Origin: Rotaria socialis
Lineage: Eukaryota
Direction of reading: 5' to 3'
Length of the DNA stretch: 56,126 bases
Assembly (NCBI GenBank): GCA_905331295.1
Contig: CAJNYD010000551.1
Coordinates: forward strand, 124,001-180,126
Shown: positions 3,932 to 53,949 of the stretch, piece by piece
How the letters are laid out: every line of letters begins with the position of its first letter
Position numbering within the stretch: position 1 is the stretch's first letter
Notes under the pieces: model-generated
Databases searched by the model: none
What the model saw: the letters and a program-made list of their open reading frames with translations, nothing else
Told to the model about the DNA's origin: nothing
Made by a program: the position numbers and the translations under genes

Positions 3932-6798
3932 GGTTGTTGCATTTGGTTATTAGTTGCCACATTTTTCAATTTACCGGTATCTGGTACACATAGTATTGTC
4001 GGTGGAACCATTGGCTTTGCTCTCATTTCTCAAGGATCAAACAGTATAAAATGGAGTGTCTTTGCTAAAATTGGTATGTTGAAAATAATGCATGGATGAT
4101 TCTATTTTTTATGAAATATAATAGGGGCTTCATGGTTTGTTTCACCTGCATTAGCTGGTATTATATCAGTAGTTTTCTTTATTCTTATTCGAAAATTTAT
4201 TCTTGAAAAAGTAAATTACTTTTAGTTTTATTAATTAAATCAATTCGCTTTTATTTTATTCCTTTAGGAGAATTCAATGACTGTGGGTCTTCGTTGGCTA
4301 CCTATTTTCTATGGCGTAACAATCATGCTTAACGTTTTTTCAATAATTCATTCAGCACCACCAAGTTTGTAGTTTGAGAAATTGATTTTCAAAATTCTAT
4401 TTTACTAATCAATTCAGTGTTATATTTCGATCGTATTCCATTATGGGGAAATTTCATAATAACAATTAGTGTTGGACTTATCATTGGTCTTGGTGTTATG
4501 ATATTTGTTAAGCCACGTTTAAAACGAAGCATTGAAGGTAAAATTGTGTTTCGCTTTTTCGTTTTTGGATTAATAAAGCAATTCTGATTCGTTTGTTTAT
4601 TTTTGTTTTAGCAACATTAAGAAAGAAACGTGGAGTCGACCACAATTCAGAAGAGAAACCACAATTAACTAAAACTGAAGGTCGTTTTGAAACATATACT
4701 GGTAAATATTGTTTTTGTTTGAAATCAACATTTCTGACAGCGAAAATCTTTTTTATAAAAATTGTAGAATAAAAGTAAGTTGATGATTATTCAAGCTATT
4801 GATTTAAAAAAAAGAATAGCGATTGCAGAATTCTCGAGTAATTGTACGATATCAGTGATTACAAACTATTTTACTAACCATAACGCTTCATGATCAGCTC
4901 TTAATTTAAAGTCTTGGGCGATATGCTTTCCGCGGGAGTAATAAAAAATCATAAAAGCAAATATATTGAATATTTCAAGCGATATAAATGATAATATTGA
5001 GTCAATTCTTAATGCGCATATGATTTTGAAATCGACTATGGAGTTATGTACTGCTACGGTGTCTAAGCAACGTTGAAAATATCGTTTAAATCGCTTGAAT
5101 CATTTCATTTATATTTGCATCATATTTTTAAAACAAAGAATATTAATAAAATTCAATTTGCTAATTTAAAATTTAGTGTCTCGTCTTGAAAATGTCAATA
5201 CGAGTGATAAAGAAACACAAATTGATCATATATCTATGCTTAAAGAATATGATTTAATACGTTATCAACAACAACATCCCGATCAATTTCGTCCTTATGG
5301 TAAAGTCTCTATAATTGCTATTTTTCTTATTATTTGAAATGAACTATTTATAGTTGAAATGCAACGTATACGAAAAGATTCCGAAACATCAAATTCTGTC
5401 TATAGCGCAGTTGGTCGTGGCCGTCGAGAAAATGAACGTTTTCGTTATGAATTACTTGCATCAGATAATCCGAACACTGTGGCACATCGAAATGTTGCTA
5501 ATCAACCAGCTATTCGTGAAGTAATTGAATTCAAAAGTAATATAAATTATACGTCATGATGTTTTTAGAAAACAAAAATTTATCGTTTACCTCAATATCC
5601 AAACTCGCCAGTGATTTCCGGTTCAGCACCTACTGAGGTTAAAAGTTTATTACTTACTTCTGGTAAACAAATTTTTTCCTCGCATGGCTAATCATTTTTA
5701 TTTGCAATAACAATTCGTTCTTAGATGACGATAATATTTCAACAACATCAGCAAATCATTTGAGTTCAAACGAAGATATAGATGAAGTCGAAGACAAAAT
5801 GCCAGAAATACCAACAAAGAAGGTTTGCTTTTTTTTGATGATTAAAATTATGACTGAATGTTTTTTTTATATAGAAAAAAGTTGATACAACGAATGACTC
5901 ATTGGAAATTGCTAGTATTTTTAAATATTTACAAATTCTTACAGCTATATTCGGTGGATTTGCCCATGGTGGAAATGATGTCAGGTAAAAGAAAACTTTA
6001 TTTATTGTTTTTTAGTTTAAATTTTCGCACAATGTAACCAATTAATATGAAATTGCATCCTAAAAATTAGTTGAAAACAATAGTCTGGTTCAGCTTTCGA
6101 ATGCCATATCATCATCATATGATTTTTTCAGAATGCTGTTCATCGATGAGTGATTGTGTAGAAATTAAACAAACTGTATCATAGTGCGCTAATCAGAGAA
6201 TGGAATTTTGACGGACGATTCTTATTTGTGAACTGTCAAAGCTACTATTGAAAGATGAATTTATGAAAAGAACTTGTTTACAATGATGATTCAATGTGTT
6301 TGTTTTTTTCAAGTAATGCAATTGGCCCATTGATTGGTCTTTGGTTAATCTATGTCGAAGGAAATGTTGTTGCAAAATCAGCAACACCATTATGGGTTCT
6401 TTTCTATGGCGGTCTTGGAATATCAGTTGGTCTTTGGGTTTGGGGTCGTCGTGTTATTCGAACAATCGGTGAAGACTTAACTAAAATTACACCGTCAAGG
6501 TATAGAAAACATTTACTATATAGATTTTTTCGAAGTAAACTCTTGACTTTCTTTCAGTGGTTTTATAATTGAAATCTCAACTGCATTTACAGTACTTGTA
6601 GCATCGAATTTATCAATTCCAATTAGTACAACGCATTGTAAAGTTGGTAGTGTCGTAGCAATTGGTCGCGTTCGTTCAAGACAAAGTGTCGATTGGTCTT
6701 TATTTCGAAATATTATTGTTGCATGGATTGTCACAGTTCCTGTTACTGGTGGCATTTCAGCTGGCATTATGGCTCTTTTTCGTTACTTTTTTCTATAG
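3509..6798 (+). CDS. SLC20A: Sodium-dependent phosphate transporter, PiT/PHO4 family, multi-exon
   Basis: Both PHO4 signature motifs are present: [17 protein letters not shown] (N-terminal) and [15 protein letters not shown] (split by the intron after 5984). [11 protein letters not shown] and [13 protein letters not shown] are also present. GT-AG introns; stop TAG at 6796-6798. Confidence 0.95.
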
Positions 6799-11929: not shown

Positions 11930-13282
11930 GTAGCAAAAACATATGGCCGGTGACATACAATAGAATTCTATTACATATATTTTTAGTTGAGATTTTATTC
12001 TCGAGCATGACATATACGTATATGTTGTATATAAAATCTTGTTTGTGATATGCTTTTATTTTTAATAAATGTAATAATCAATTTATAAATAAATCGTATA
12101 TATTTATTTTTAAATATTATTGACAACTATTGAAAATAGATCAATAAAATACATTGCTAAAGCGCATCAACAAGCAGTACAGGTAAACATAAATGCACAT
12201 CTTGTATAGAAAAATTGAATAATATCAGATACAACTATGCAATTCTAGAAATATTGTTAAATTTATAAAAAAAAACATTGAATTCAGGCGTTGTCTCGTA
12301 TCACGAATAACTTTGGAGTTGGTAGAGAACGTGACGAAAGGAGTTCGACACTGGTAGTCGTGTATAGTTTACGAAATCTCCTGTACAATCACAAGTCTCT
12401 TCCTATGATCGCTACGAAAAATTTATTTATTTATTTCTTCCTATCTGTAGTAGTTGTTAGAACCTAGGGTTGAAGAGGACGAGCTACTAATAAATTCAAG
12501 TCAATGCTAACAACACTAATTCTTTTTCTTTGAAAATAGCTCTGAGCTAAAAAGCAAAAACAATTCAGATAAAAATACTGAAATGAATTACATATTTTCA
12601 AAAAGTATACTAAAACGATGTTTTGTCTAATATCCGACTATGTTAGTCGTAAATAATAAAGAAATATCAGAGAGACAGAAATAATTTAACTAGTGAAAAA
12701 CAGTTTAAATGCTGAAGCATGCAGCAAACTTGACACATTTCTAGTAACTGATGATATTCTTTTGAAGCCTTTTTCTCAGATTATTTCAATAGAAAATCAT
12801 ATAAAAACACTTATGACACTATATCCAGGCCTACTAACACTACAGAGAAACATACACATCCAGGGTTACCTATAATAAAAATAAAGACACAACGATGCAT
12901 AATCTAAATATAGATTGTCAAGGTGAAAAAAAAACATCTGAATTATGACGTCTCTAATAAGAACGTATTAAAAGAGAATTTGTAAGCTATCCATTGAAGC
13001 TTCTATCAGATTAATATATATATATATATGATGTTACTTCAACAACTGTGCTAATAACTTTCTCTAATAAAAAATAATAAGTTTTACTTTTTAAAGTAAT
13101 TAACATGAACGTGCCAAAAAGAGATTCGATTTCTTGTCTTTTAATATTTATTATATGAAAATTTCCAAACGTGACAATTACAAATTCTTAATAAGCTTTA
13201 CTTTGTTTCTTTAAATATCAACATAAAATCTCAAGTTCCATCTATAAAACTTCCCTATTGTTCAATATATCATCAAAATAAT

Positions 13283-14428
13283 ATGTCGTTTCTTGTCTGC
13301 CTTGCAATATTTTCTATTCGTACATATTTATCTACAGGTTCTTATACATATGGAATAATTCATAATGCAACAGTTAAAATTCCATTCGATTTACCTGACG
13401 ACGTTTATCATAGACTAGACAATCAATTTTCTTGTAATCAATGTCTTTGCCATGCATTTAACGATTCTCGCGTATTTCTATTAACATGTACTGGTAATGA
13501 ATTTGAAAATTTTACATGTCAATTTTATTATTTTATGCCGATGAGAGATGAACTTAGATATCGAAATAATACAAATATATACTTAATGAAAAATGAAACA
13601 TTTAAAGAAAAAGATGATTGCTGTAATACAACATATCTTCTTGAACAACTCCAGTCAACATCAACTAATAAAACACGTGTTTTTACACAATCTTTACGTT
13701 TTCTTGTTTTCGGTGATAATAATACGATAGCTTCAATATATCAAGAGAAATTAATTAAGTTTAATAAATATACATTTGAAAAGGTCTATGAATCAACTCG
13801 AAATGGTTTTAAAACGGTTGGATTCGATGGGAAATATTATTATCTTGGAAGAAGCGGGTCAATGGAAGTTCATAATGTGATAATCGATTCGCCAATAACA
13901 ACTGTTACATTAGGAGGCATTTTAACAAGTATTCGTCGTCGCAATAATACAAAAATGCTTGTAGGCGCAGCTACAGCAGGTGGTTTTATTTGCGAAAGGC
14001 AACCAGAAATATTTAACAAATGTGCAGCCATTCCAGCACTGAACGCAATTGGAAAACAATTACATGCTTTGGATATCGTTAATGACAGCGCATTTTATGC
14101 TGGCTGGGCAGATTCAAGCGAAAATGTTCGTTTATATATGAAAGATCAGAATAATACATGGAGCGACAGTAACTCTATTTTTAGTAGCTCTACGACGGTG
14201 TCAGATATCATTGTTGATGATTGTCAACGGTTATGGGTAGTTAAAGCAGGCGCTAATAAAATATATATCTATGATCAAAATAACAATTCTCCGAATATAT
14301 TTACAACTAATTCGGGTTTATTTAACCTTTTGATTATGGAGAATTATACACTTGTTACGTCACATGAAGCTGCTCCTCAGGGCTTACATGTTACTAAACC
14401 AACTCTGAATTGTCGTCCACCGCGTTAA
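13283..14428 (+). CDS. Intronless secreted protein with a Cys-rich PAN/apple-like N-terminal module and a probable beta-propeller
   Basis: 381-aa ORF; hydrophobic N-terminus; SCNQCLC...TC...TCQFY and CCN motifs; blade-like strands such as SDIIVDDCQRLWVV; many NxS/T sites; AATAAA downstream. Confidence 0.75.
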   Translation: MSFLVCLAIFSIRTYLSTGSYTYGIIHNATVKIPFDLPDDVYHRLDNQFSCNQCLCHAFNDSRVFLLTCTGNEFENFTCQFYYFMPMRDELRYRNNTNIYLMKNETFKEKDDCCNTTYLLEQLQSTSTNKTRVFTQSLRFLVFGDNNTIASIYQEKLIKFNKYTFEKVYESTRNGFKTVGFDGKYYYLGRSGSMEVHNVIIDSPITTVTLGGILTSIRRRNNTKMLVGAATAGGFICERQPEIFNKCAAIPALNAIGKQLHALDIVNDSAFYAGWADSSENVRLYMKDQNNTWSDSNSIFSSSTTVSDIIVDDCQRLWVVKAGANKIYIYDQNNNSPNIFTTNSGLFNLLIMENYTLVTSHEAAPQGLHVTKPTLNCRPPR

Positions 14429-15520: not shown

Positions 15521-17326
15521 TTAGGTTAATCGAAATAGCCATTTGTTCACCATATTATATCGACCTTCAAGTACAATCTTATAGAAGTCCGATGGATAGC
15601 TTTTGACATCAATCTCAGCTGTTTTCAAAGCGATATGCTCTGTTCCCATGAGCTGATAATCATCAGATTTTCCCTTCTGAAATGAATTAGTAGTTGAAAG
15701 CCATATTGTCACATTGCCTTCATCATCGAATGCTTGCCAACTAAACTTGATACGATCACCAGTTAATTGTGCTTCAAAGTTGGCTAATGAAATTTTTCCA
15801 ATCAATGAAATTCCGTCTAGTTCTCGAGCCGATTCTATTGGGACCGAGATACTAAGAAATTGTGCCATTGTTGGCAATAAGTCAACGATAGCAGGCTGAA
15901 AATTACGAAAATAATCATTTGTATTCTGTGTATTCATCACTATCCAGGTTGTACGTTCTCGGTCGGATTGTTCTCCATGTTCGCGACCTGTAGTCGGATC
16001 TCGGCCATGGTCAGTTGTAATAATTATCAGCCAGTCCTCATGAAAGTGGTTCTGTCGATACTCGATCGCTTCCCACATTCGACCAATTTGATTATCAAGA
16101 CTAATAACACTTTGATTGAATTGTTCACTATCTCCGAAATGATGTGCCACATCATCAGTATACTGTAAATAAGTCCATGATAGATCTGGTGCTGCTGTTC
16201 GGATACATGTGGCAGCTTCATTTGCCACACGTTCATCGATCCTATAAATATAGTAATCTGCTAGATCATGTGGATAAGCGTGTTGGTTTAATTCATATCC
16301 GTCAAATTTATAATCGAAAATAATTTGACCAGCCTGCGGTAGACCTTCACCCACAAGTTTGAGACGATTATCTAACCAAGTAGAAAAGATACCGATTTCC
16401 CTTTGTGGTTCTTGTTCTTTCAACAATCGGAAAATGTTTTTATAATGATAGTTAGGATTTTTGACATCATTATCGAACACATTATGTTTGTTACCCCATG
16501 TTCCAGTAATTAGATCCATGTAACCTGGAGCAGAAACGGTTGGTGTCTCTGAATAAGACCCCTTGATGCCTCCTACGTATGCTCTCTTATATGTTCCAAG
16601 GTCAGAGATCTTTCTAATATTCGGAGCCGAAGCAGCTTCAATAACATCGGCAGGAATACCATCTGCGATAATGAACAACACTTTCTTGGTCATCTGTTGA
16701 ATAGTGATATTTCCAGGACGGAATATATCTAAAGCAAAAGCCAATGACCCTTTATTCATAGATCGGTTGTTGTTCTCATTAAGAGAAGCTCAGTAAACAT
16801 TCTGTACTGGCAAAGTATTTACCTGTTGAACTTGTATTGTCTGATGTTGTGTCTTCTTTGTCTCGTGATCCTTGAATACTTGTCTTCCCTTTCGTATAGA
16901 CAATAACGATCATAGATATGAAAATGATAGCCATTACCAAGACACCCAACCAGACAAAAGTGCGCATACTGAATAACGTACTGGACCTCTTCTGAGGAAG
17001 AATTCCAGTGATGATTTTATTATTGTCTCCATGAGCATCTGAATTATTGTCGGCCGGATCACGGCTTACTACTAATAGAAGCTTGCTCTCTCTTCCAACA
17101 TGCGATCCAGTCGAAGGTGGGCCTACAATAAAGAGATTGTATTTATATCATTGACTCTTTGATTTTTGAATAAGAAGAGAACCCATCGAATACGAAAGAA
17201 ACAAATCGATCATTCGAATATGATACTCTCGTAAGGAATTTTATAGACAGCAATTTAATAATAAACACTGATCTTACCATCATTTTCGTGGCTCAGAAGT
17301 GCTGGATCTAACTCGCTATGCATCAT
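15521..17326 (-). CDS. Membrane-anchored alkaline-phosphatase-superfamily / nucleotide pyrophosphatase-like enzyme, bacterial-type catalytic domain, 3 exons
   Basis: Exons 17326-17278, 17122-16823 and 16728-15521 join in frame through two phase-1 GT-AG introns. TM helix FVWLGVLVMAIIFISMIVIVY. Catalytic and metal motifs FIIADGIPAD, TVSAPGY, YLQYTDDVAH and TTDHG. Confidence 0.88.
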
Positions 17327-19971
17327 GTTGAGTAGGAGAAACAAATATTAACAGTGATAAATTGCTAATCTACAAATAGAAACCAATAAACACGATGTTA
17401 GTACGATCAGTCAATTAGACTAGGCATAATTGAGTCAACATGAAAGTTTCTCGAGTAAACTAACGAATTTTGAAACAATGACCACCATTGGCATACACAC
17501 ATCAAGATCTTCGAAATTTAAAATATAGTCGCGAAAAGAAAAGCATGTTTCAAGTGAAGAAAAATACATTTTCATCTGCAACCTGATGGTCTTAATCCAG
17601 TCACCATAAAGAAGAGTTAAAACGTTGCTGCCCCATCGAATGACGAACATCCTGTAGATTTACTTGAATTATATTTAAAAAATTCCAATATCGTCGCAAT
17701 GAAAGCTTCAATCTGATCGTGGGCGTCAAGTAAAATAAAATAGCAAGAAAAATGCATGTGTATGCATTCTACAATCCAGAAACTCGATGATATTAAACTA
17801 ACGGCGTACGTCGCTCGAATAAAGTAGAAAATCACATGTGTTATATGTTATGCTTCACTTATTTTCCTTGAGTTTTGTTTTTCTCTGATTTTTTTGTCAC
17901 ACTGCGTTAATTTGATTTTCTTCTTCTCTCTCTCTCTGACTCTGAGTGGCGTGCTTACGGTGTGAAGAAAGAGCGTAAAAATAGATTTGCAAGGTCAATT
18001 ATTTTCATTATGTATTGCTAGAGTATATATAAAAACACTCTTTCAGTTTTATTCATCTTTGAACCTGACACAGGTCAAACAATAAGAAATCATCTTTTTT
18101 TTACATTCCAAAACCATATTCAAGTATGACTCTAAAGCATTTTTTTTCTAGTTCGATGTAGTCGTCTTATTTGTTCAGTCTATGGCATAGATTTATGTTT
18201 ATGTCCCATATTCGTTAACTCTTTTCTCTACATTTCAATTAATACTCTGATCTAGTATGTAATTTTAAGGTCTAGATGTGTACGAGTTACTTGAAATACG
18301 CTGCGCAAATATTTTAAGACAAAAATTATCCATCGAGCGAGAGCTCTGACGAATCAAGAGAAGCAATAAATCACATAGAATGACTATCCTATTGAGTTAA
18401 CGATTAAGATCTGATTCAATGCAAAATATTTTCAGAGTCGTTTGCGAACTAGGAATATCCTACAACTGTATCTGATTGAAACTGATAGGTTTCTCACGAT
18501 CTCACAATGCGTATTAGGCAAGGGTAAGCCAAAAGAAAAGACAAAGAAATCGTCCAAAGCCGCAAGATATTATCATAAAATAATATTGATGTTGTAAGCT
18601 GTGGAGGTCGCTCACACCAACACCTTTGTTAAAATACCAATGTTACTTTATCGATCAAGCACATGCGTATATACATTCTGTCGACATTTTCTCAATCAAA
18701 ATTTGTTAGTTGACATTCTCTTCATCGACATTTACTATTCTACATCGTTTTGTTTCATTGTTTAGTGCGCAATTATTGGGCCACCTTATCAACTCGCGAT
18801 TGCGAATCTACCGCAACTAGTTCTAATAGTCCTTCTTAATGAAAATATCAGATTTAAGAATGAAATTCATCTATAAAAAATCCGGTACTAGAACATGTAT
18901 CCATTTCTTCCGACTATAAATATTTGATTGGGCATGTCAGAAATCACGTTTTCAGTCACATATTATTTTTATATTAGTTGCTGATATGCAATTTGTTCTA
19001 AACATTGTATTGAAAAATAATTTGAATCCTTCTATTAAACTGCACTTCCTGAGTACGGTTGATGATAGGTTGAATATATTTCTCTTTTCTTCGCTTTTAA
19101 CCTTGAATTACCTGATTGGGGTTCGAATATATATGACCGTTCATTTGCATAAAATGAATTCAAGAATAGAGGAAAAAAAAGAAGGCTTACATTTACCTCG
19201 AGCAGAAATAAAAACTTCCGAGTGACAAATCGAAAGCATTTTTCTTCTACTGTTCTATCGTTGTTAAACACATAATTTGAATATTCCTTTTCGTCTTTGT
19301 ATCGTTCTTATACGGCATTTCTTTTTAAATTATCAAGTATAATTCGAATTCATTATTTATTCTGCTTGTCAAACGTCTATAGAAGTTCTATTCAATGGGG
19401 AACAAACTGATTTCTAATGCTAGAAATCGCAAGAAATCATAAGAGATCATTTTATATTACATTTTTCAACTTTTTCAAATTATTAGACATTAGAGATAAA
19501 TATACAATATTCTTTTATTCTTATTCAATTTCTATTAAATTTATCGCAAAATTAGTACTCGCTCGGCAGCCAGTTGCTAGAAGTCTTAATTGTAAAACAA
19601 CTGAAAGCTTCTTATATTCGTTATTTCACAAAGTAGTCATAAATTAGTACGAAAAATCTTATAGATGAATGAAACATGATTGAATAGTAACTACTACATC
19701 GTGTTCGTTCAACCTCGATATCTAGGACATGATGGGCCACGTCTCTTATTATGCGTTCTCTTTGTCATATAGCTGACCGAAGGACACGGTTTCTTTAAGA
19801 AATGTCGATGCTAAATAAAGCTACAACTGTTGTCAATAATAAAAGCCGTATCGATCCGGAGACTTTTTATCTTTGTAAGGTATACTTTGTAAAAGTATCA
19901 TTTTTACGTTTCTGGAGTATCCTCATGCACTCGTGAAAAAGTTTTTTTTCCATTACTGCTGTTCACAAATA

Positions 19972-39771: not shown

Positions 39772-40942
39772 TTAGAATGTAACAACTAGATTATCCATTG
39801 TGAAGTGTTTCGCATCACAGCACCAATCACAAATCGAAGTTAAATGTATGCTATCGATTCTGGGCCAGTTGAGTTCAACCAAGGTTCTATTTTGTATAAA
39901 TAGTGATACTGTTTTCGTAAACAAAATGGTGCCTGATCTTGAACCAACCATTGCCAGTGTTATGTTATCGTACCAAACTGCACAAGAATAAAATGAGTGT
40001 GCTGTAAATAATGTACTTGCAGTTGCACTTTCGATAGTCATTGGACTACCATATCCATTAAAAGCAAGATACGGTGGACTAACAACACCCGTTCTATAGC
40101 CAGTACCTGGATTGCTAAAATTTAAACCATTCAAAACCAAAACATTTTCCCAATTTAAACCACCATAGTTGCTAGGTACTGGAACTCCTGGTGTATCAGT
40201 AGTATTTGTTATGTCATCAAAAGTTATTAATGAGCGTCGTTCTGAAAAAGCTACAAATAAGAAAAATTCATCTCTGATTTAACTACCAAATTTCAATATT
40301 TTTGCCTCTAAAAGAACTTTAGGTTTGTAAATATTTTGAAAAATGATGTAAAACGTCTAAATTATACAGTTCATGAAATAAAGAATAAATTTATTCTAAA
40401 AGCCCTCTCAACTCATGATAGAAAAACCATCTCTCGACTTGGATTTTAACTGATATATTTTGTATTGAATTTCTTTTTCAAAACTCATTTGATTTAAGCA
40501 GGACGCAGATCTTCACTTGTTTTTTTTTCTATCGCATTATTATTTATTGAATAACATTCAACTATTTTTTTTAAAGCGGGTCGAAGATGACACGCATAAA
40601 TGAATAAAATGGAGTAACTGTTTGAAAATGTGTTCGATTGCTTAAGAACATCTACACTTGATTAGTCAGAAATAGAAAAGATGAAATTTTCAATCAATTA
40701 TTATCTTTGTGTTCGAACACAAATTCAATGCATTATAAATTAATATCATATAAAGTAAAATTACAAAATACGTAGACCTACTCGTTTGCTGATTAATGAA
40801 CAGCGGCCCTATCAAACAGAAAGCATTGTTGATGAATTAAAACAAATAATATTATGCGATCATTTTTCGACTTCATACTCAAGGATATTGTGACACTAAT
40901 AGTCCAGAAGAACAGAGTAGTAGTGATGATACTTGCAAACAT
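39772..40942 (-). CDS. Small secreted protein with a microbial-type beta-sandwich domain, 3 exons
   Basis: Exons 40942-40879 (signal peptide MFASIITTTLFFWTISVTISL), 40808-40782 and 40250-39772 are in frame. Domain motifs LITFDDI, VPSNYGGLNWEN, GYRTGVVSPPYLAFN and HFTMDNL. Confidence 0.8.
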
Positions 40943-48850: not shown

Positions 48851-49571
48851 TCTATAAATTTAAAATTCAAATTTAAATTTCTATTTAAGTTTTGTTTTAT
48901 TTATATACCAACATATAAATTGAAGACGGAACCAGTATATGTTTTGAAGCGTTCTTTGTAAAAACTTCAAAAACAAAACTCTTTAATCAATACGGGAACA
49001 ACTAAACAATGGAACCAGATAATATGAAAAAGAAATTAAAACGGTTTTCCTCAACGTCACGAAAAGTTTTATGCTGTGAAGACACAGCACAAACTATGAG
49101 CACATCGTTCTGATACTTCTTGTATCAACAATCATCAAATATAGATATCATTCGTTGTTACAATCTGTAGTCATAATCCGGAAAAATCTTTCAAAGCAGC
49201 TCGTTTATCATTCAACTGCAGATGCGCCCGTATACGTATGATATAAATCTTAAAAGATAAGTTCTATAGAACTTCCTAGATTTTCGATTAACTATTTATG
49301 ACCATGTTCCAGATAATTTGGCAGGCTACTTGACTCTGTTAGCTGGTGCTGACATGCCATATCTTTACTACTCAAAATGAACTGATGTTACAGTAGAGAA
49401 AAGCGTTCTCTGAATCTTCAAATGATAAAATATTTGTTTTGCTTATCTACCTTTCTCTTTTTATAAAACGGTTTTAGTATAGTTAACTGAATGTAAAAAA
49501 AACAGATAATTTTATCTGCAATCGTCAGTGATATTTTATACTTGTTGTCTTGCTTCTAGATTTTCATCCCA

Positions 49572-50621
49572 ATGTCAAAAACAATTCTTGTTACAGGCGC
49601 TAATTCTTTTATCGGTACTTGGATCGTCCAAGATCTTCTTGAGAAAGGTTACAGCGTTCGTGGAACAGTACGATCTCAAGCGAAAGAAACCCAAGTTCTT
49701 GATGGTGTTTCGAAGGATTATCACAGTAGAATTTCGTTTGTACACATTAATGATATTACTACAGACTCATTTGATGAAGCTGTGAAAGGTGTTCTTGGCA
49801 TTATTCACGTTGCTTCGCCATTTCATTTCAACGTCACAGATCCAGAAAAAGATCTAATTTTGCCAGCTATCAATGGTACTCTTGGCGTTCTGAAAGCAGC
49901 TCACGCATACAACCAAAACAATGATAATACAATAAAAAGAGTAGTTATTACATCATCATTTGCTTCGATCTTTGATCCAAGCAAAGGACTACGACCTGGC
50001 TATTCATATACTGAGAAAGACTGGTCTCCAGTCACCTACGAGCAAGGAGCAGCTGCTAAAAATGAACCAATGACGGCTTATCGTGCGTCAAAAGTATGTG
50101 CTGAACGCGCTGCATGGGACTTCATTGATAAGGAAAAACCTTCGTTTACAATCGCAACCATATGTGAACCACTGGTCTTTGGACCACGCGCTGGTGGTTT
50201 CAGATCACTGGATGATATTAATACTTCTAATGCATCAGTACGAGGACTGGTCACTAGCGGTAAAGATGCTCCAATGCTCGAAACACGAGTACCATTCCAA
50301 GTAGATGTAAGAGATGTGGCTCACACACACACAGCAGCTCTAGAACGATCAACTGATACAAGCGAACGCTATCTAATAGCAGGAGGAACTTGGAGTTTTC
50401 AGGAAATAGCGGATCTCGTTCATAGCAGTACCGTCATTCCGGACAATATCAAGAATACTACGCCAGTTGGCATCAAAGGTCAATCACTTCCAGATCATTA
50501 TGAGATTGATAGTTCGAAGGCTCAAAAAGACTTGGGCATTACATATATTCCTTTGAAGAAAACGATGGAAGATTTAATTGTGCAATTAGCCGATTTACAA
50601 ACAATGCTAGAACAATCATGA
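49572..50621 (+). CDS. Extended SDR, fungal GRE2 / aldehyde reductase II-like NADPH-dependent reductase, intronless
   Basis: ILVTGANSFIG, VRGTVRS, IHVASPF, LILPAINGTLGVL, VVITSSFASI, catalytic AYRASK, AERAAWDFIDKEKPSF, VDVRDVA; AATAAA after the stop. Confidence 0.92.
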   Translation: MSKTILVTGANSFIGTWIVQDLLEKGYSVRGTVRSQAKETQVLDGVSKDYHSRISFVHINDITTDSFDEAVKGVLGIIHVASPFHFNVTDPEKDLILPAINGTLGVLKAAHAYNQNNDNTIKRVVITSSFASIFDPSKGLRPGYSYTEKDWSPVTYEQGAAAKNEPMTAYRASKVCAERAAWDFIDKEKPSFTIATICEPLVFGPRAGGFRSLDDINTSNASVRGLVTSGKDAPMLETRVPFQVDVRDVAHTHTAALERSTDTSERYLIAGGTWSFQEIADLVHSSTVIPDNIKNTTPVGIKGQSLPDHYEIDSSKAQKDLGITYIPLKKTMEDLIVQLADLQTMLEQS

Positions 50622-51742: not shown

Positions 51743-52685
51743 ACGCCGAAAAGTTTTAAAGGCCATAACAATTTTAGAACAAAACACTATGGAAAACTGT
51801 TTCGTAACTTTTTTTAATCTTAGAAAAGATTTCATCACATTAGAAAAATTTCGACTAATTTGAACTGTACAATGAATGAATACAATAATAATCCTGTACG
51901 AAAAGACACGCTCCACAAAGGAAAAAACAAACGATTTTATGGTATCATTTGTGTCGACTCTTTTTTTATTACCATCGATGACAGTCAAAAAAAATGAGAT
52001 CTATTCAGAGTGAGTGGTTACAAGAAGTTATAAAGTTTGAATGAAAAATAAACCATATTGAGTTCTCTGTCATTCTGTATTATTTTGAATAAGACACATG
52101 CTTTCTGTGACATATTCAGTCAATCACTTATTTTTCACTTTATAAATCCTAAATTGACTATATCAAGCTATTTAATCCCATCGCCGACTGCCTATTGTTC
52201 TTTTATATGACGCCAACTATTTTAGCATCATGCGAAAGCCTTCATTGTTATAAACAATTGCATCTATAGGATCCTTGAAAATACTGATAGTGGATAATGA
52301 AAACTATCGTTAAACTTGCAGCAAACTTGCCCAACGTCATTTGTCCTAAAATTTGTATGACCATTGACAAACATCTTCAATCAAATTCTTTCATATAGTT
52401 TTGCACCCGATATTTTTCTCTTTCTAAAAATATGAAGTCGTCAAGACATTTCATTGCAGTGGTATTTGAAAAGCAAAATTAATACGGAGTCTTCATCCTA
52501 TTCATTTGCTTTTCATCAATATGCTCTTTTTTCATAGATAAAAGATAGCACAGTGACTGATTCTAACTACACCTATCAAAGATTATAATGTGTCCTGACA
52601 AGAATATGTATGCTTTTCTTTAAACATATAAATAATTCTGTGTCTCAATTGAATATTGTTCCATAATTAAAACTATTTTCAGACA

Positions 52686-53949
52686 ATGGACCATCAATGG
52701 AATCTAAATCAATATATAACTTACATTTTATTAACACTTGTTTTTCTTTCATCATGGACAGATATTAATGGAATGTATGCAGAACTGCCACAAGTTATTT
52801 TAACTCAACCTGAAAGTTGGAAATTAGGTGCAAATCTAGCGTTAATTACAAATTTTGGTAATATTTCACCCTTAATACTTGTTCTTATTAAATGTTTGTA
52901 CCGAAAGCATACACTTAATCCAGTACCAATTAATTATATTGTTATACTCATTGGTATGCTCTCATGTTTTTTATTAATTTTCCTTTGGTCATATACAACA
53001 GTCATTGCTAATGTAAGACGTAGTACAGCATTATTAACTCTTGCATTATTTCTTTCGTTACTCGATTGTACATCATCAGTTTCATTTGCTGATTATATAC
53101 ATCGATTTCGAAAAGAATTTACGAGTGCATTTTTCCTTGGTGAAAGTCTTACATTTACTATACCAAGTCTATTGGCAATTGCACAAGGTAATGGTCGAAT
53201 TCGTTGTGTTCAAGCAATCAATGGAACAAATACAACTGAAGCCATTTATGAACCTCCACGATTTTCAGTATCAATCTATTTTTTATGTTTATTTATTCTG
53301 TTAACCATTTCATTTATCTCATTCGTACTTTTTACAATGGACATCTATTGCTCGAAATGCAAATCAAATCGTACCGGAAGAATCATTGGAAATAATGAAT
53401 ACAATTGATAAAAAAGAAAAATCGTTAACTACGCCATGCTACATTCTTCTTTCATTAGGATGTGCTTATATCAGTTCAATTGTGTTTGGAATGATTCTAT
53501 CAATTTCCGCATATGCTTTAATGCCTTATGGACATAACATTTTTTATCTAGGAACAATTCTTTCACCATGGATGTTGACATTTGTTTGGATACTTGGTAT
53601 AATAAAACCTATTTTACCGAAATGTTTTATATTAATTTTAATTATACTTGGATCATTTACATTTGCATTGATTATGTATGTTTCTTTCAAAAGTCCGTGT
53701 CCTCCATGGGTTGATACAACTAAGGGAAGTGCTTTAATTTTATTTATATGGCTTAGTAATTACATATTGTTGGGTTATCCTCGTTTGATTATTGCAAATT
53801 ATATACGAACATATTCTCCTAATGGAATGTTTTGGTTTGGTGTTCAAGTACAATTTGGGGGATTAGTTGGCTCCATTATTTCTTATCTTTTTATTGAAAC
53901 ATTTTCGTTATTTCGTGAACGAATACCATGTGAACAATATAATTGTTAA
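52686..53949 (+). CDS. SLC52A: Riboflavin transporter, intronless, with a +1 frameshift in the T-run at 53329-53333
   Basis: SSWTDINGMYAELP, PESWKL, NFGNISP, LLDCTSSVSF, FFLGESL, PPRFSVS, YALMPYG, SPCPP. Deleting one T fuses ORFs 52686-53408 and 53386-53949 through VLLQWTSIARNANQ. Confidence 0.88.

Follow-up and report, generated by a model that had tools for sequence, protein, structure and literature searches.

A probably Bacteroidota-derived gene for a predicted membrane-anchored phosphoesterase in bdelloid rotifers, and its relatives in fungus gnats

Background

Among the described enzymes closest to the protein analysed here are NPP and ENPP, of which ENPP1-3 are anchored as type II membrane proteins, and the phosphatases SPAP and PafA. 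PafA is made a monoesterase by its residues K162 and R164 (10.1101/2020.11.24.383182). Nearer in sequence stand Bacteroidota proteins annotated as 'alkaline phosphatase family protein' (PF01663 + PF01676), found for example in Hymenobacter, Mucilaginibacter and Larkinella; our searches found no characterised member of this bacterial family, which has serine as nucleophile.

Well-supported foreign genes make up 6-9% of the genes of bdelloid rotifers (PMC5916493, Nowell et al. 2018), and foreign phosphonate enzymes have been described in Adineta (PMC3499245). Supplement sheet 9 of PMC4632278 (Eyres et al. 2015) flags as foreign R. socialis and R. magnacalcarata transcripts named 'type I phosphodiesterase/nucleotide pyrophosphatase', whose exons are listed as pieces of 95-96 nt, 308-311 nt and about 1,500 nt. 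For the fungus gnat genus Bradysia, terpene synthases acquired from mites have been described (PMC11665903), P450s from springtails and mites are cited in PMC12051294, and transfers from mites or springtails also appear in 10.64898/2025.12.11.693641.

Here, we analysed one gene within a 56,126-nt stretch of Rotaria socialis DNA (GCA_905331295.1, contig CAJNYD010000551.1, positions 124,001 to 180,126 of the forward strand), referred to as the window. An earlier note on this DNA had read the gene as a bacterial-type phosphatase/phosphodiesterase rebuilt as a spliced type II membrane protein with sorting motifs. We examined its transcripts, fold, phylogeny, membrane anchor, glycosylation sequons and relatives in fungus gnats.

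Results

Gene structure, transcripts and surroundings

The coordinates of all features are collected in Table 1. Joining the three exons in frame yields a product of 518 aa, and an identical protein is deposited at NCBI for Rotaria socialis (CAF3273724.1), besides shorter R. socialis models beginning in the last exons; the R. magnacalcarata orthologue at NCBI also has 518 aa. Intron 2 was absent from the contigs of all four runs (two studies) and intron 1 from those of three of the same runs, the fourth being without exon 1 coverage, whereby junctions were judged from assembled contigs, not from raw reads, and all six runs used are only presumed to be RNA. In contigs from two more distant organisms, all three exons (X5) or exons 2 and 3 (X6) are joined. 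The two phase-1 GT-AG introns and the hidden first exon postulated earlier are therefore confirmed by reading frame, contigs and the NCBI entry. The contigs span both introns and contain the spliced joints to the exon with the transmembrane (TM) helix, and ESKLLL, DPALL and all catalytic motifs quoted in the earlier note are present in the product.

Table 1. Positions of gene features within the window
Feature	Position	Strand	Details
Trans-splice acceptor AG (17371-17370) and 43-nt 5' UTR	17327..17371	-	23-nt rotifer spliced leader joined here
Coding exon 1	17278..17326	-	49 nt; residues 1-16 and one base of 17
DPALL	17294..17308	-	residues 7-11, DxxLL match; D7G in R. magnacalcarata orthologue
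Intron 1	17123..17277	-	155 nt, GT-AG, phase 1; skipped in X1, X2, X3, X5
Exon 2	16823..17122	-	300 nt; remaining predicted cytosolic tail, membrane helix, beginning of S/T/D stalk
ESKLLL	17073..17090	-	residues 28-33, [DE]xxxL[LI] match; EKNLLL in sister species
Predicted signal-anchor helix	16899..16955	-	residues 73-91; Kyte-Doolittle 3.02
Intron 2	16729..16822	-	94 nt, GT-AG, phase 1; between anchor and catalytic exons; skipped in X1-X6
Exon 3	15521..16728	-	1208 nt; catalytic domain
Alkaline-phosphatase-superfamily core	15790..16690	-	residues 130 to about 430; exon 3; PF01663 E 6.5e-18
Ser182	16532..16534	-	predicted nucleophile; aligns to Thr of NPP and PafA
N237-R238-L239	16361..16369	-	invariant Asn; bacterial N-R-T/S sequon, lost in animal rows
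C-terminal all-beta domain and stop	15521..15789	-	about residues 431-518; from model secondary structure; bacterial relatives have one too

Missed by the earlier note was an acceptor AG located 43 nt upstream of the ATG. Past 17371, two contigs end in non-genomic nucleotides (11 nt in X1, 21 nt in X5), and the X5 end together with the genomic AG equals the 23-nt 'Rotifera 1' leader listed in Table 1 of PMC3795323. Even with 3 mismatches allowed, the window did not contain the leader sequence itself. The transcript thus carries a 23-nt leader that is attached behind an AG without being encoded alongside, and is SL trans-spliced. Another X1 contig spans 17369-17800 and looks like an unspliced 5' part. 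The leader is a mark of full adoption by the host, yet not a rare one, as more than half of bdelloid transcripts bear it (PMC1925144).

As the neighbouring genes (PHO4, Ku80, FAF1, Ras and SLC52) are metazoan, the locus is rotifer DNA. GC3 was 0.32 for the gene and 0.17-0.30 in four neighbouring ORFs. Features of an established foreign gene are present, namely introns, linkage to metazoan genes and expression, the latter in the form of contigs from presumed-RNA runs. No Rfam match was obtained anywhere in the window. The PHO4-family phosphate transporter exon (6267-6572, +) lies about 9 kb from the phosphoesterase gene, which may be chance, and the SLC52 riboflavin transporter (52671-53949, +) is found in two overlapping frames. 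An ORF of about 380 aa (13175-14428, +), which has no introns and only weak propeller-like matches, is convergent with the phosphoesterase gene, and an X1 contig extends about 400 nt beyond 15300 toward it. An ORF of 168 aa (39772-40278, -) is without Pfam match; our impression is that it resembles bacterial secreted beta-rich domains. The intronless ORF at 49560-50621 (+; 349 aa) belongs to the NAD-dependent epimerase/dehydratase family and resembles, as we assume, fungal aldehyde reductases, which would make it a second candidate foreign gene.

Catalytic domain and probable bacterial origin

The catalytic domain scored 65.9 bits with PF01663 (cut-off 23). Its active-site set, comprising D139, S182, N203, D308, H312, D356, H357 and H367, is at least 97% conserved at all eight positions in animal and bacterial rows alike (183 rows), and the nucleophile is Ser in all rows covering the column (58 of 58 animal and 121 of 121 bacterial, 179 in total). 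D139, S182, D308, H312, D356 and H357 align to the two-metal ligands and the nucleophile of NPP, with the same Asn. The invariant H367 is a putative metal ligand, and a phosphoserine intermediate would be formed at Ser182.

A structure model based on 117 sequences (pLDDT 97.4) matched SPAP, PafA, ENPP7, Xanthomonas NPP and ENPP4 with Z values of 26.5-27.2 at 18-19% identity. With NPP/ENPP (Xanthomonas NPP 2gsn/7mw8, ENPP4-7) the protein shares the fold (Z 26.5-27.1, rmsd 2.6-2.7, 254-258 residues), the zinc ligands and the Asn, and predicted type II anchoring is shared with ENPP1-3; they differ by the low identity of 18-20%, their Thr nucleophile and a separate origin. Pfam showed neither a somatomedin-B nor a nuclease-like domain in the rotifer protein. 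The fold is equally close to that of PafA and SPAP (Z 27.1-27.2, rmsd 2.9, 273-274 residues), with an equivalent of N100 present, whereas T79 is replaced by Ser and an in-register K-D-R is lacking. A profile alignment, weak at 70% probability, gave K162/R164 of this K-D-R no partner in register, and an invariant N-R sits three residues beyond. The invariant R238 and K197 might stand in for the PafA pair, and the enzyme may be a mono- or a diesterase.

Several family assignments were rejected. Sulfatase was Foldseek's top rank, but the ligand set and the VIA ranking favour two-zinc phosphoesterases. For the PafA family, NF042991 scored 11.2 bits against a cut-off of 650, and membership of NPP/ENPP is contradicted by Ser instead of Thr as nucleophile in 179/179 rows. 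Descent from animal ENPP does not agree with a domain nested in Bacteroidota, and ENPP chains matched at E 1e-7 or weaker, the trees being built without ENPP rows. The enzyme is predicted to act in the manner of an NPP or PafA and is a member of neither family. In contrast, the Bacteroidota 'alkaline phosphatase family' proteins have 54-57% identity across the domain, the same ligands, the Ser nucleophile and the C-terminal beta domain; they differ by a cleavable-type signal peptide (median of 23 residues ahead of the domain), the N237 sequon and the lack of an anchor. Matches in the ESM Atlas were to bacterial clusters only. Alignments, nucleophile and tree thus uphold the view that the catalytic domain is Bacteroidetes-like and not an animal ENPP.

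In a 183-row tree, the 62 animal-type sequences fall into a single long-stemmed clade, which has 100/99-100 support in five IQ-TREE trees; the only names among its members are those of bdelloids and Bradysia. The remaining 121 rows are termed bacterial; those with a name belong to Bacteroidota, and of the rest most have signal peptides. Within Bacteroidota, the animal clade is sister to Hymenobacter and Mucilaginibacter rows (100/97), in a tree of 16 animal rows that was rooted on distant relatives from a full-library search and has one long outgroup branch. The bacterial origin claimed in the earlier note therefore stood up to phylogenetic analysis, the domain being nested in Bacteroidota and not among metazoan sequences. 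Since the clade includes copies from Didymodactylos, Adineta and Rotaria as well as several paralogues, the acquisition is old. In two Adineta steineri rows (P0040, P0042), an extra N-terminal methionine sulfoxide reductase or antimicrobial-peptide domain is annotated, representing real fusions or merged models.

Judged by name and piece size, the foreign transcripts of PMC4632278 are very likely this gene. Bdelloid foreign genes in PMC4632278 and PMC5916493 are similarly ancient, expressed and intron-bearing, while the relevant rows in PMC4632278 mention neither anchor nor leader, nor any sequon change or link to sciarids. Bdelloids have many foreign, intron-bearing genes, of which this one is apparently catalogued already, so the bacterial transfer itself is ordinary.

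Predicted membrane anchor and its possible source

A single internal hydrophobic helix precedes the domain, and there is no N-terminal signal peptide; hydropathy analysis thus bore out the TM helix of the proposed type II layout. The charge across the helix differs little (+3 before, +2 after). The anchor is predicted to remain uncleaved, with the N-terminus in the cytosol. With a hydropathy threshold of at least 2.5, a hydrophobic segment ahead of the domain was found in 21 of the 63 animal rows but in none of 109 bacterial ones, although the helix of P0024 escaped the pattern. By eye, most of the other 42 animal rows are truncated or intron-retaining models, and soluble forms may exist in the animal family. 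The earlier note had treated the anchor as an event in a single gene; this could not be maintained, as it is a family trait common to bdelloid paralogues and Bradysia, and it is ancient in bdelloids, not a one-off. A similar layout, with a 51-nt phase-1 intron at the equivalent place, occurs at an AT-rich metagenome locus (L009), which was the only one recognised as rotifer-like among 80 loci returned by a metagenome scan.

It had also been proposed that the bacterial signal peptide was replaced with host exons. An anchor indeed stands in place of a cleavable signal peptide, but a host source of the new exons was not found, as residues 1-125 matched two Rotaria clusters only (2/760 candidates) and no host homologue. 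Alternatively, the bacterial signal peptide could have grown longer, escaped cleavage and so become the anchor, with an intron gained behind it and the tail extended later, so that no host exon was borrowed. For this we see slightly less than even odds. The absence of a host homologue fits it, as does the short distance of only 9-16 residues from helix to domain in Bradysia and several bdelloid rows, which resembles the geometry of a signal peptide, and the window protein retains the bacterial mature start QQ-x-x-K-K/R-V. Against it, anchors and signal peptides have no demonstrable sequence likeness, and in both the window and L009 a phase-1 intron parts the anchor from the domain, as exon shuffling would also produce.

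Changes in N-glycosylation sequons

The sequon at N237 is present in 121/121 bacterial and 0/62 animal rows. Conversely, sequons absent from all 121 bacterial rows occur in animal rows at N286 (47/62), N455 (27/61) and N148 (23/52); the window protein itself is without the N286 sequon. On average, animal rows carry 4.6 sequons (56 rows) versus 1.9 in bacterial rows (121 rows), where composition predicts 3.3 versus 2.5, these counts not being independent owing to shared ancestry. The loss through residue 239 may be a single change, and a divergent bacterial-type row (P0228) also has Leu there. From the lost and the new sequons, we infer that the domain traverses the ER lumen, and it is probably N-glycosylated.

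The gene in fungus gnats

Contigs of 12.7 and 5.3 Mb carry the gene in B. coprophila and B. odoriphaga, and three related clusters were found besides. After these, the best matches of the Bradysia protein are animal-clade rows at 61-66% identity, followed by bacteria at up to 56%. The Bradysia protein has the anchor with a very short tail; the N237 sequon is lacking in 5/5 gnat rows, and the N286 and N148 sequons are present in 4/5 each. Five derived residues of Bradysia are common to bdelloids and one to bacteria. These sequence comparisons lend good support to one eukaryote-adapted ancestor of the bdelloid and gnat genes.

Four trees unite the sciarids with three Adineta rows that bear a name (95/85, 97/82, 99/97 and 98/95). 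Counting unnamed rows as bdelloid, AU tests rejected a position of the sciarids outside bdelloids, both with 32 rows (p 0.017) and with 26 rows under a mixture model (p 0.0016), whereas with named rows alone bdelloid monophyly was not rejected (p 0.39, 33 rows). The gnat gene is thus probably nested among bdelloids, which points to transfer from rotifer to insect or to a shared unsampled donor. A short S-E/K-E-N-like motif recurs in the N-termini of P0014, P0029, P0032, P0034, P0046 and P0051; in P0046, which adjoins the gnat clade, it is a weak sign of bdelloid identity.

We slightly favour a course of events in which a Bacteroidota enzyme was refitted once in bdelloids, by gain of anchor, intron and leader, loss of one sequon and gain of others, and then passed ready-made from a rotifer to an ancestor of the sciarids, the bdelloids serving as relay in a transfer between phyla. 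Transfer from a bdelloid is the most likely source of the gnats' gene. It is a good deal less probable that bdelloids and gnats each received an already adapted gene from a third, unsampled eukaryote such as a fungus, a protist or another soil animal. Such a donor would suit the test with named rows alone, which permits the sciarids as sister to all bdelloids, and the fact that the rows closest to the sciarids have no species name; it is opposed by the grouping with named Adineta, by both tests including unnamed rows and by the lack of any other named eukaryote among the best 120 matches of either the rotifer or the gnat query. No gnat locus was present among the 80 metagenome loci returned.

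Compared with the known transfers into Bradysia, the recipient is the same and the donors are likewise soil fauna; those donors are arthropods, however, whereas here the likely donor stands outside that phylum and the gene is ultimately bacterial. Among arthropod foreign segments, supplement 7 of PMC13389597 (2026) contains four rows (three proteins) with bdelloid tree sisters, marked 'disregard rotifer sisters'. The Bradysia accession was not found in 12 of the 15 supplements of PMC13389597. In the literature searched, no report of a bdelloid-gnat link of this gene was found. One assembly in supplement 7, GCF_014529535.1, is presumably that of B. coprophila.

Candidate sorting motifs in the predicted cytosolic tail

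Dileucine sorting motifs are defined here as DxxLL and [DE]xxxL[LI]. The earlier note had taken DPALL and ESKLLL for endolysosomal signals of these types, for which family comparison gave little backing. Conservation was compared with one full-length orthologue, that of R. magnacalcarata, the Silwood orthologue models being without N-terminus; the tails of the two species are 83% identical. DPALL reads GPALL there, and DxxLL occurs in 1/15 family tails (p 0.14), so it does not hold as a conserved signal. In EKNLLL the match to [DE]xxxL[LI] is retained, but the pattern is not enriched in the family (2/15 tails, 0.57 expected, p 0.11). Nor was enrichment seen for any of five dileucine-type patterns in the 15 tails (p 0.11-0.57) or for tyrosine motifs (5/15 tails versus 4.8 expected). 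The set of 15 left out the sister orthologue, tails of fewer than 24 residues and a partial model (P0032) with the motif above its likely start.

That this paralogue is sent to endosomes or lysosomes by its dileucine signals and works there is accordingly doubtful. Both motifs co-occur in just 1.9% of 20,000 tail shuffles (a post hoc test), EKNLLL keeps E and LLL while three adjacent residues changed, and an Adineta ricciae paralogue (P0402) begins with DPTSLL. Yet at 83% tail identity the retention of a few residues is expected, and D7G and the missing enrichment speak against such signals. As the dileucine motifs are not conserved, the protein's destination may be either the gut surface or the lysosome.

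Contamination of the rotifer assembly with bacterial DNA, or of the gnat assemblies with rotifer DNA, is highly improbable. For the window it is excluded by introns, spliced leader and metazoan neighbours. In the gnats it is opposed by proteins of two species that are encoded on large contigs (12.7 and 5.3 Mb), are 89% identical and form a 100/100 clade of their own.

Discussion

Clues to function come from the bacterial relatives. SusC/SusD-like or phosphoester/phosphonate genes adjoin the bacterial gene in 24/50 loci (at least 6 kb), a count without background control in which the labels for SusD and two metallophosphoesterases are partly our own reading (no or weak family matches). At four loci (L039, L046, L050, L013), the bacterial relatives adjoin genes of a TIGR03364 oxidoreductase and phosphonatase-like genes. 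Phosphate utilisation clusters of such a kind have been described in Flavobacterium (PMC8115612). Based on these neighbours, the Flavobacterium clusters and the phosphonate enzymes of Adineta (PMC3499245), we propose a phosphoester hydrolase freeing phosphate or head groups from food. We assign a probability of about 0.7 to the reading that the gene product is an anchored, lumen-facing enzyme of this kind; a role in scavenging organic phosphorus is suggested by the bacterial gene neighbours.

The history would then have begun with one acquisition from a Bacteroidota bacterium, likely early in bdelloid history, after which the gene would have become spliced and trans-spliced in its host. Its product would be a type II membrane enzyme with a two-zinc Ser182 active site facing the lumen or the cell surface, cleaving phosphate esters from food. 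A descendant of the same eukaryote-adapted gene would have reached fungus gnats, most likely via a bdelloid.

The gene would thereby make it possible to read how an enzyme of the periplasm was refitted to the eukaryotic secretory pathway. It is also a candidate case of transfer from one animal phylum to another in which shared derived residues can be scored, and it may offer a eukaryotic handle on a large bacterial family with Ser as nucleophile.
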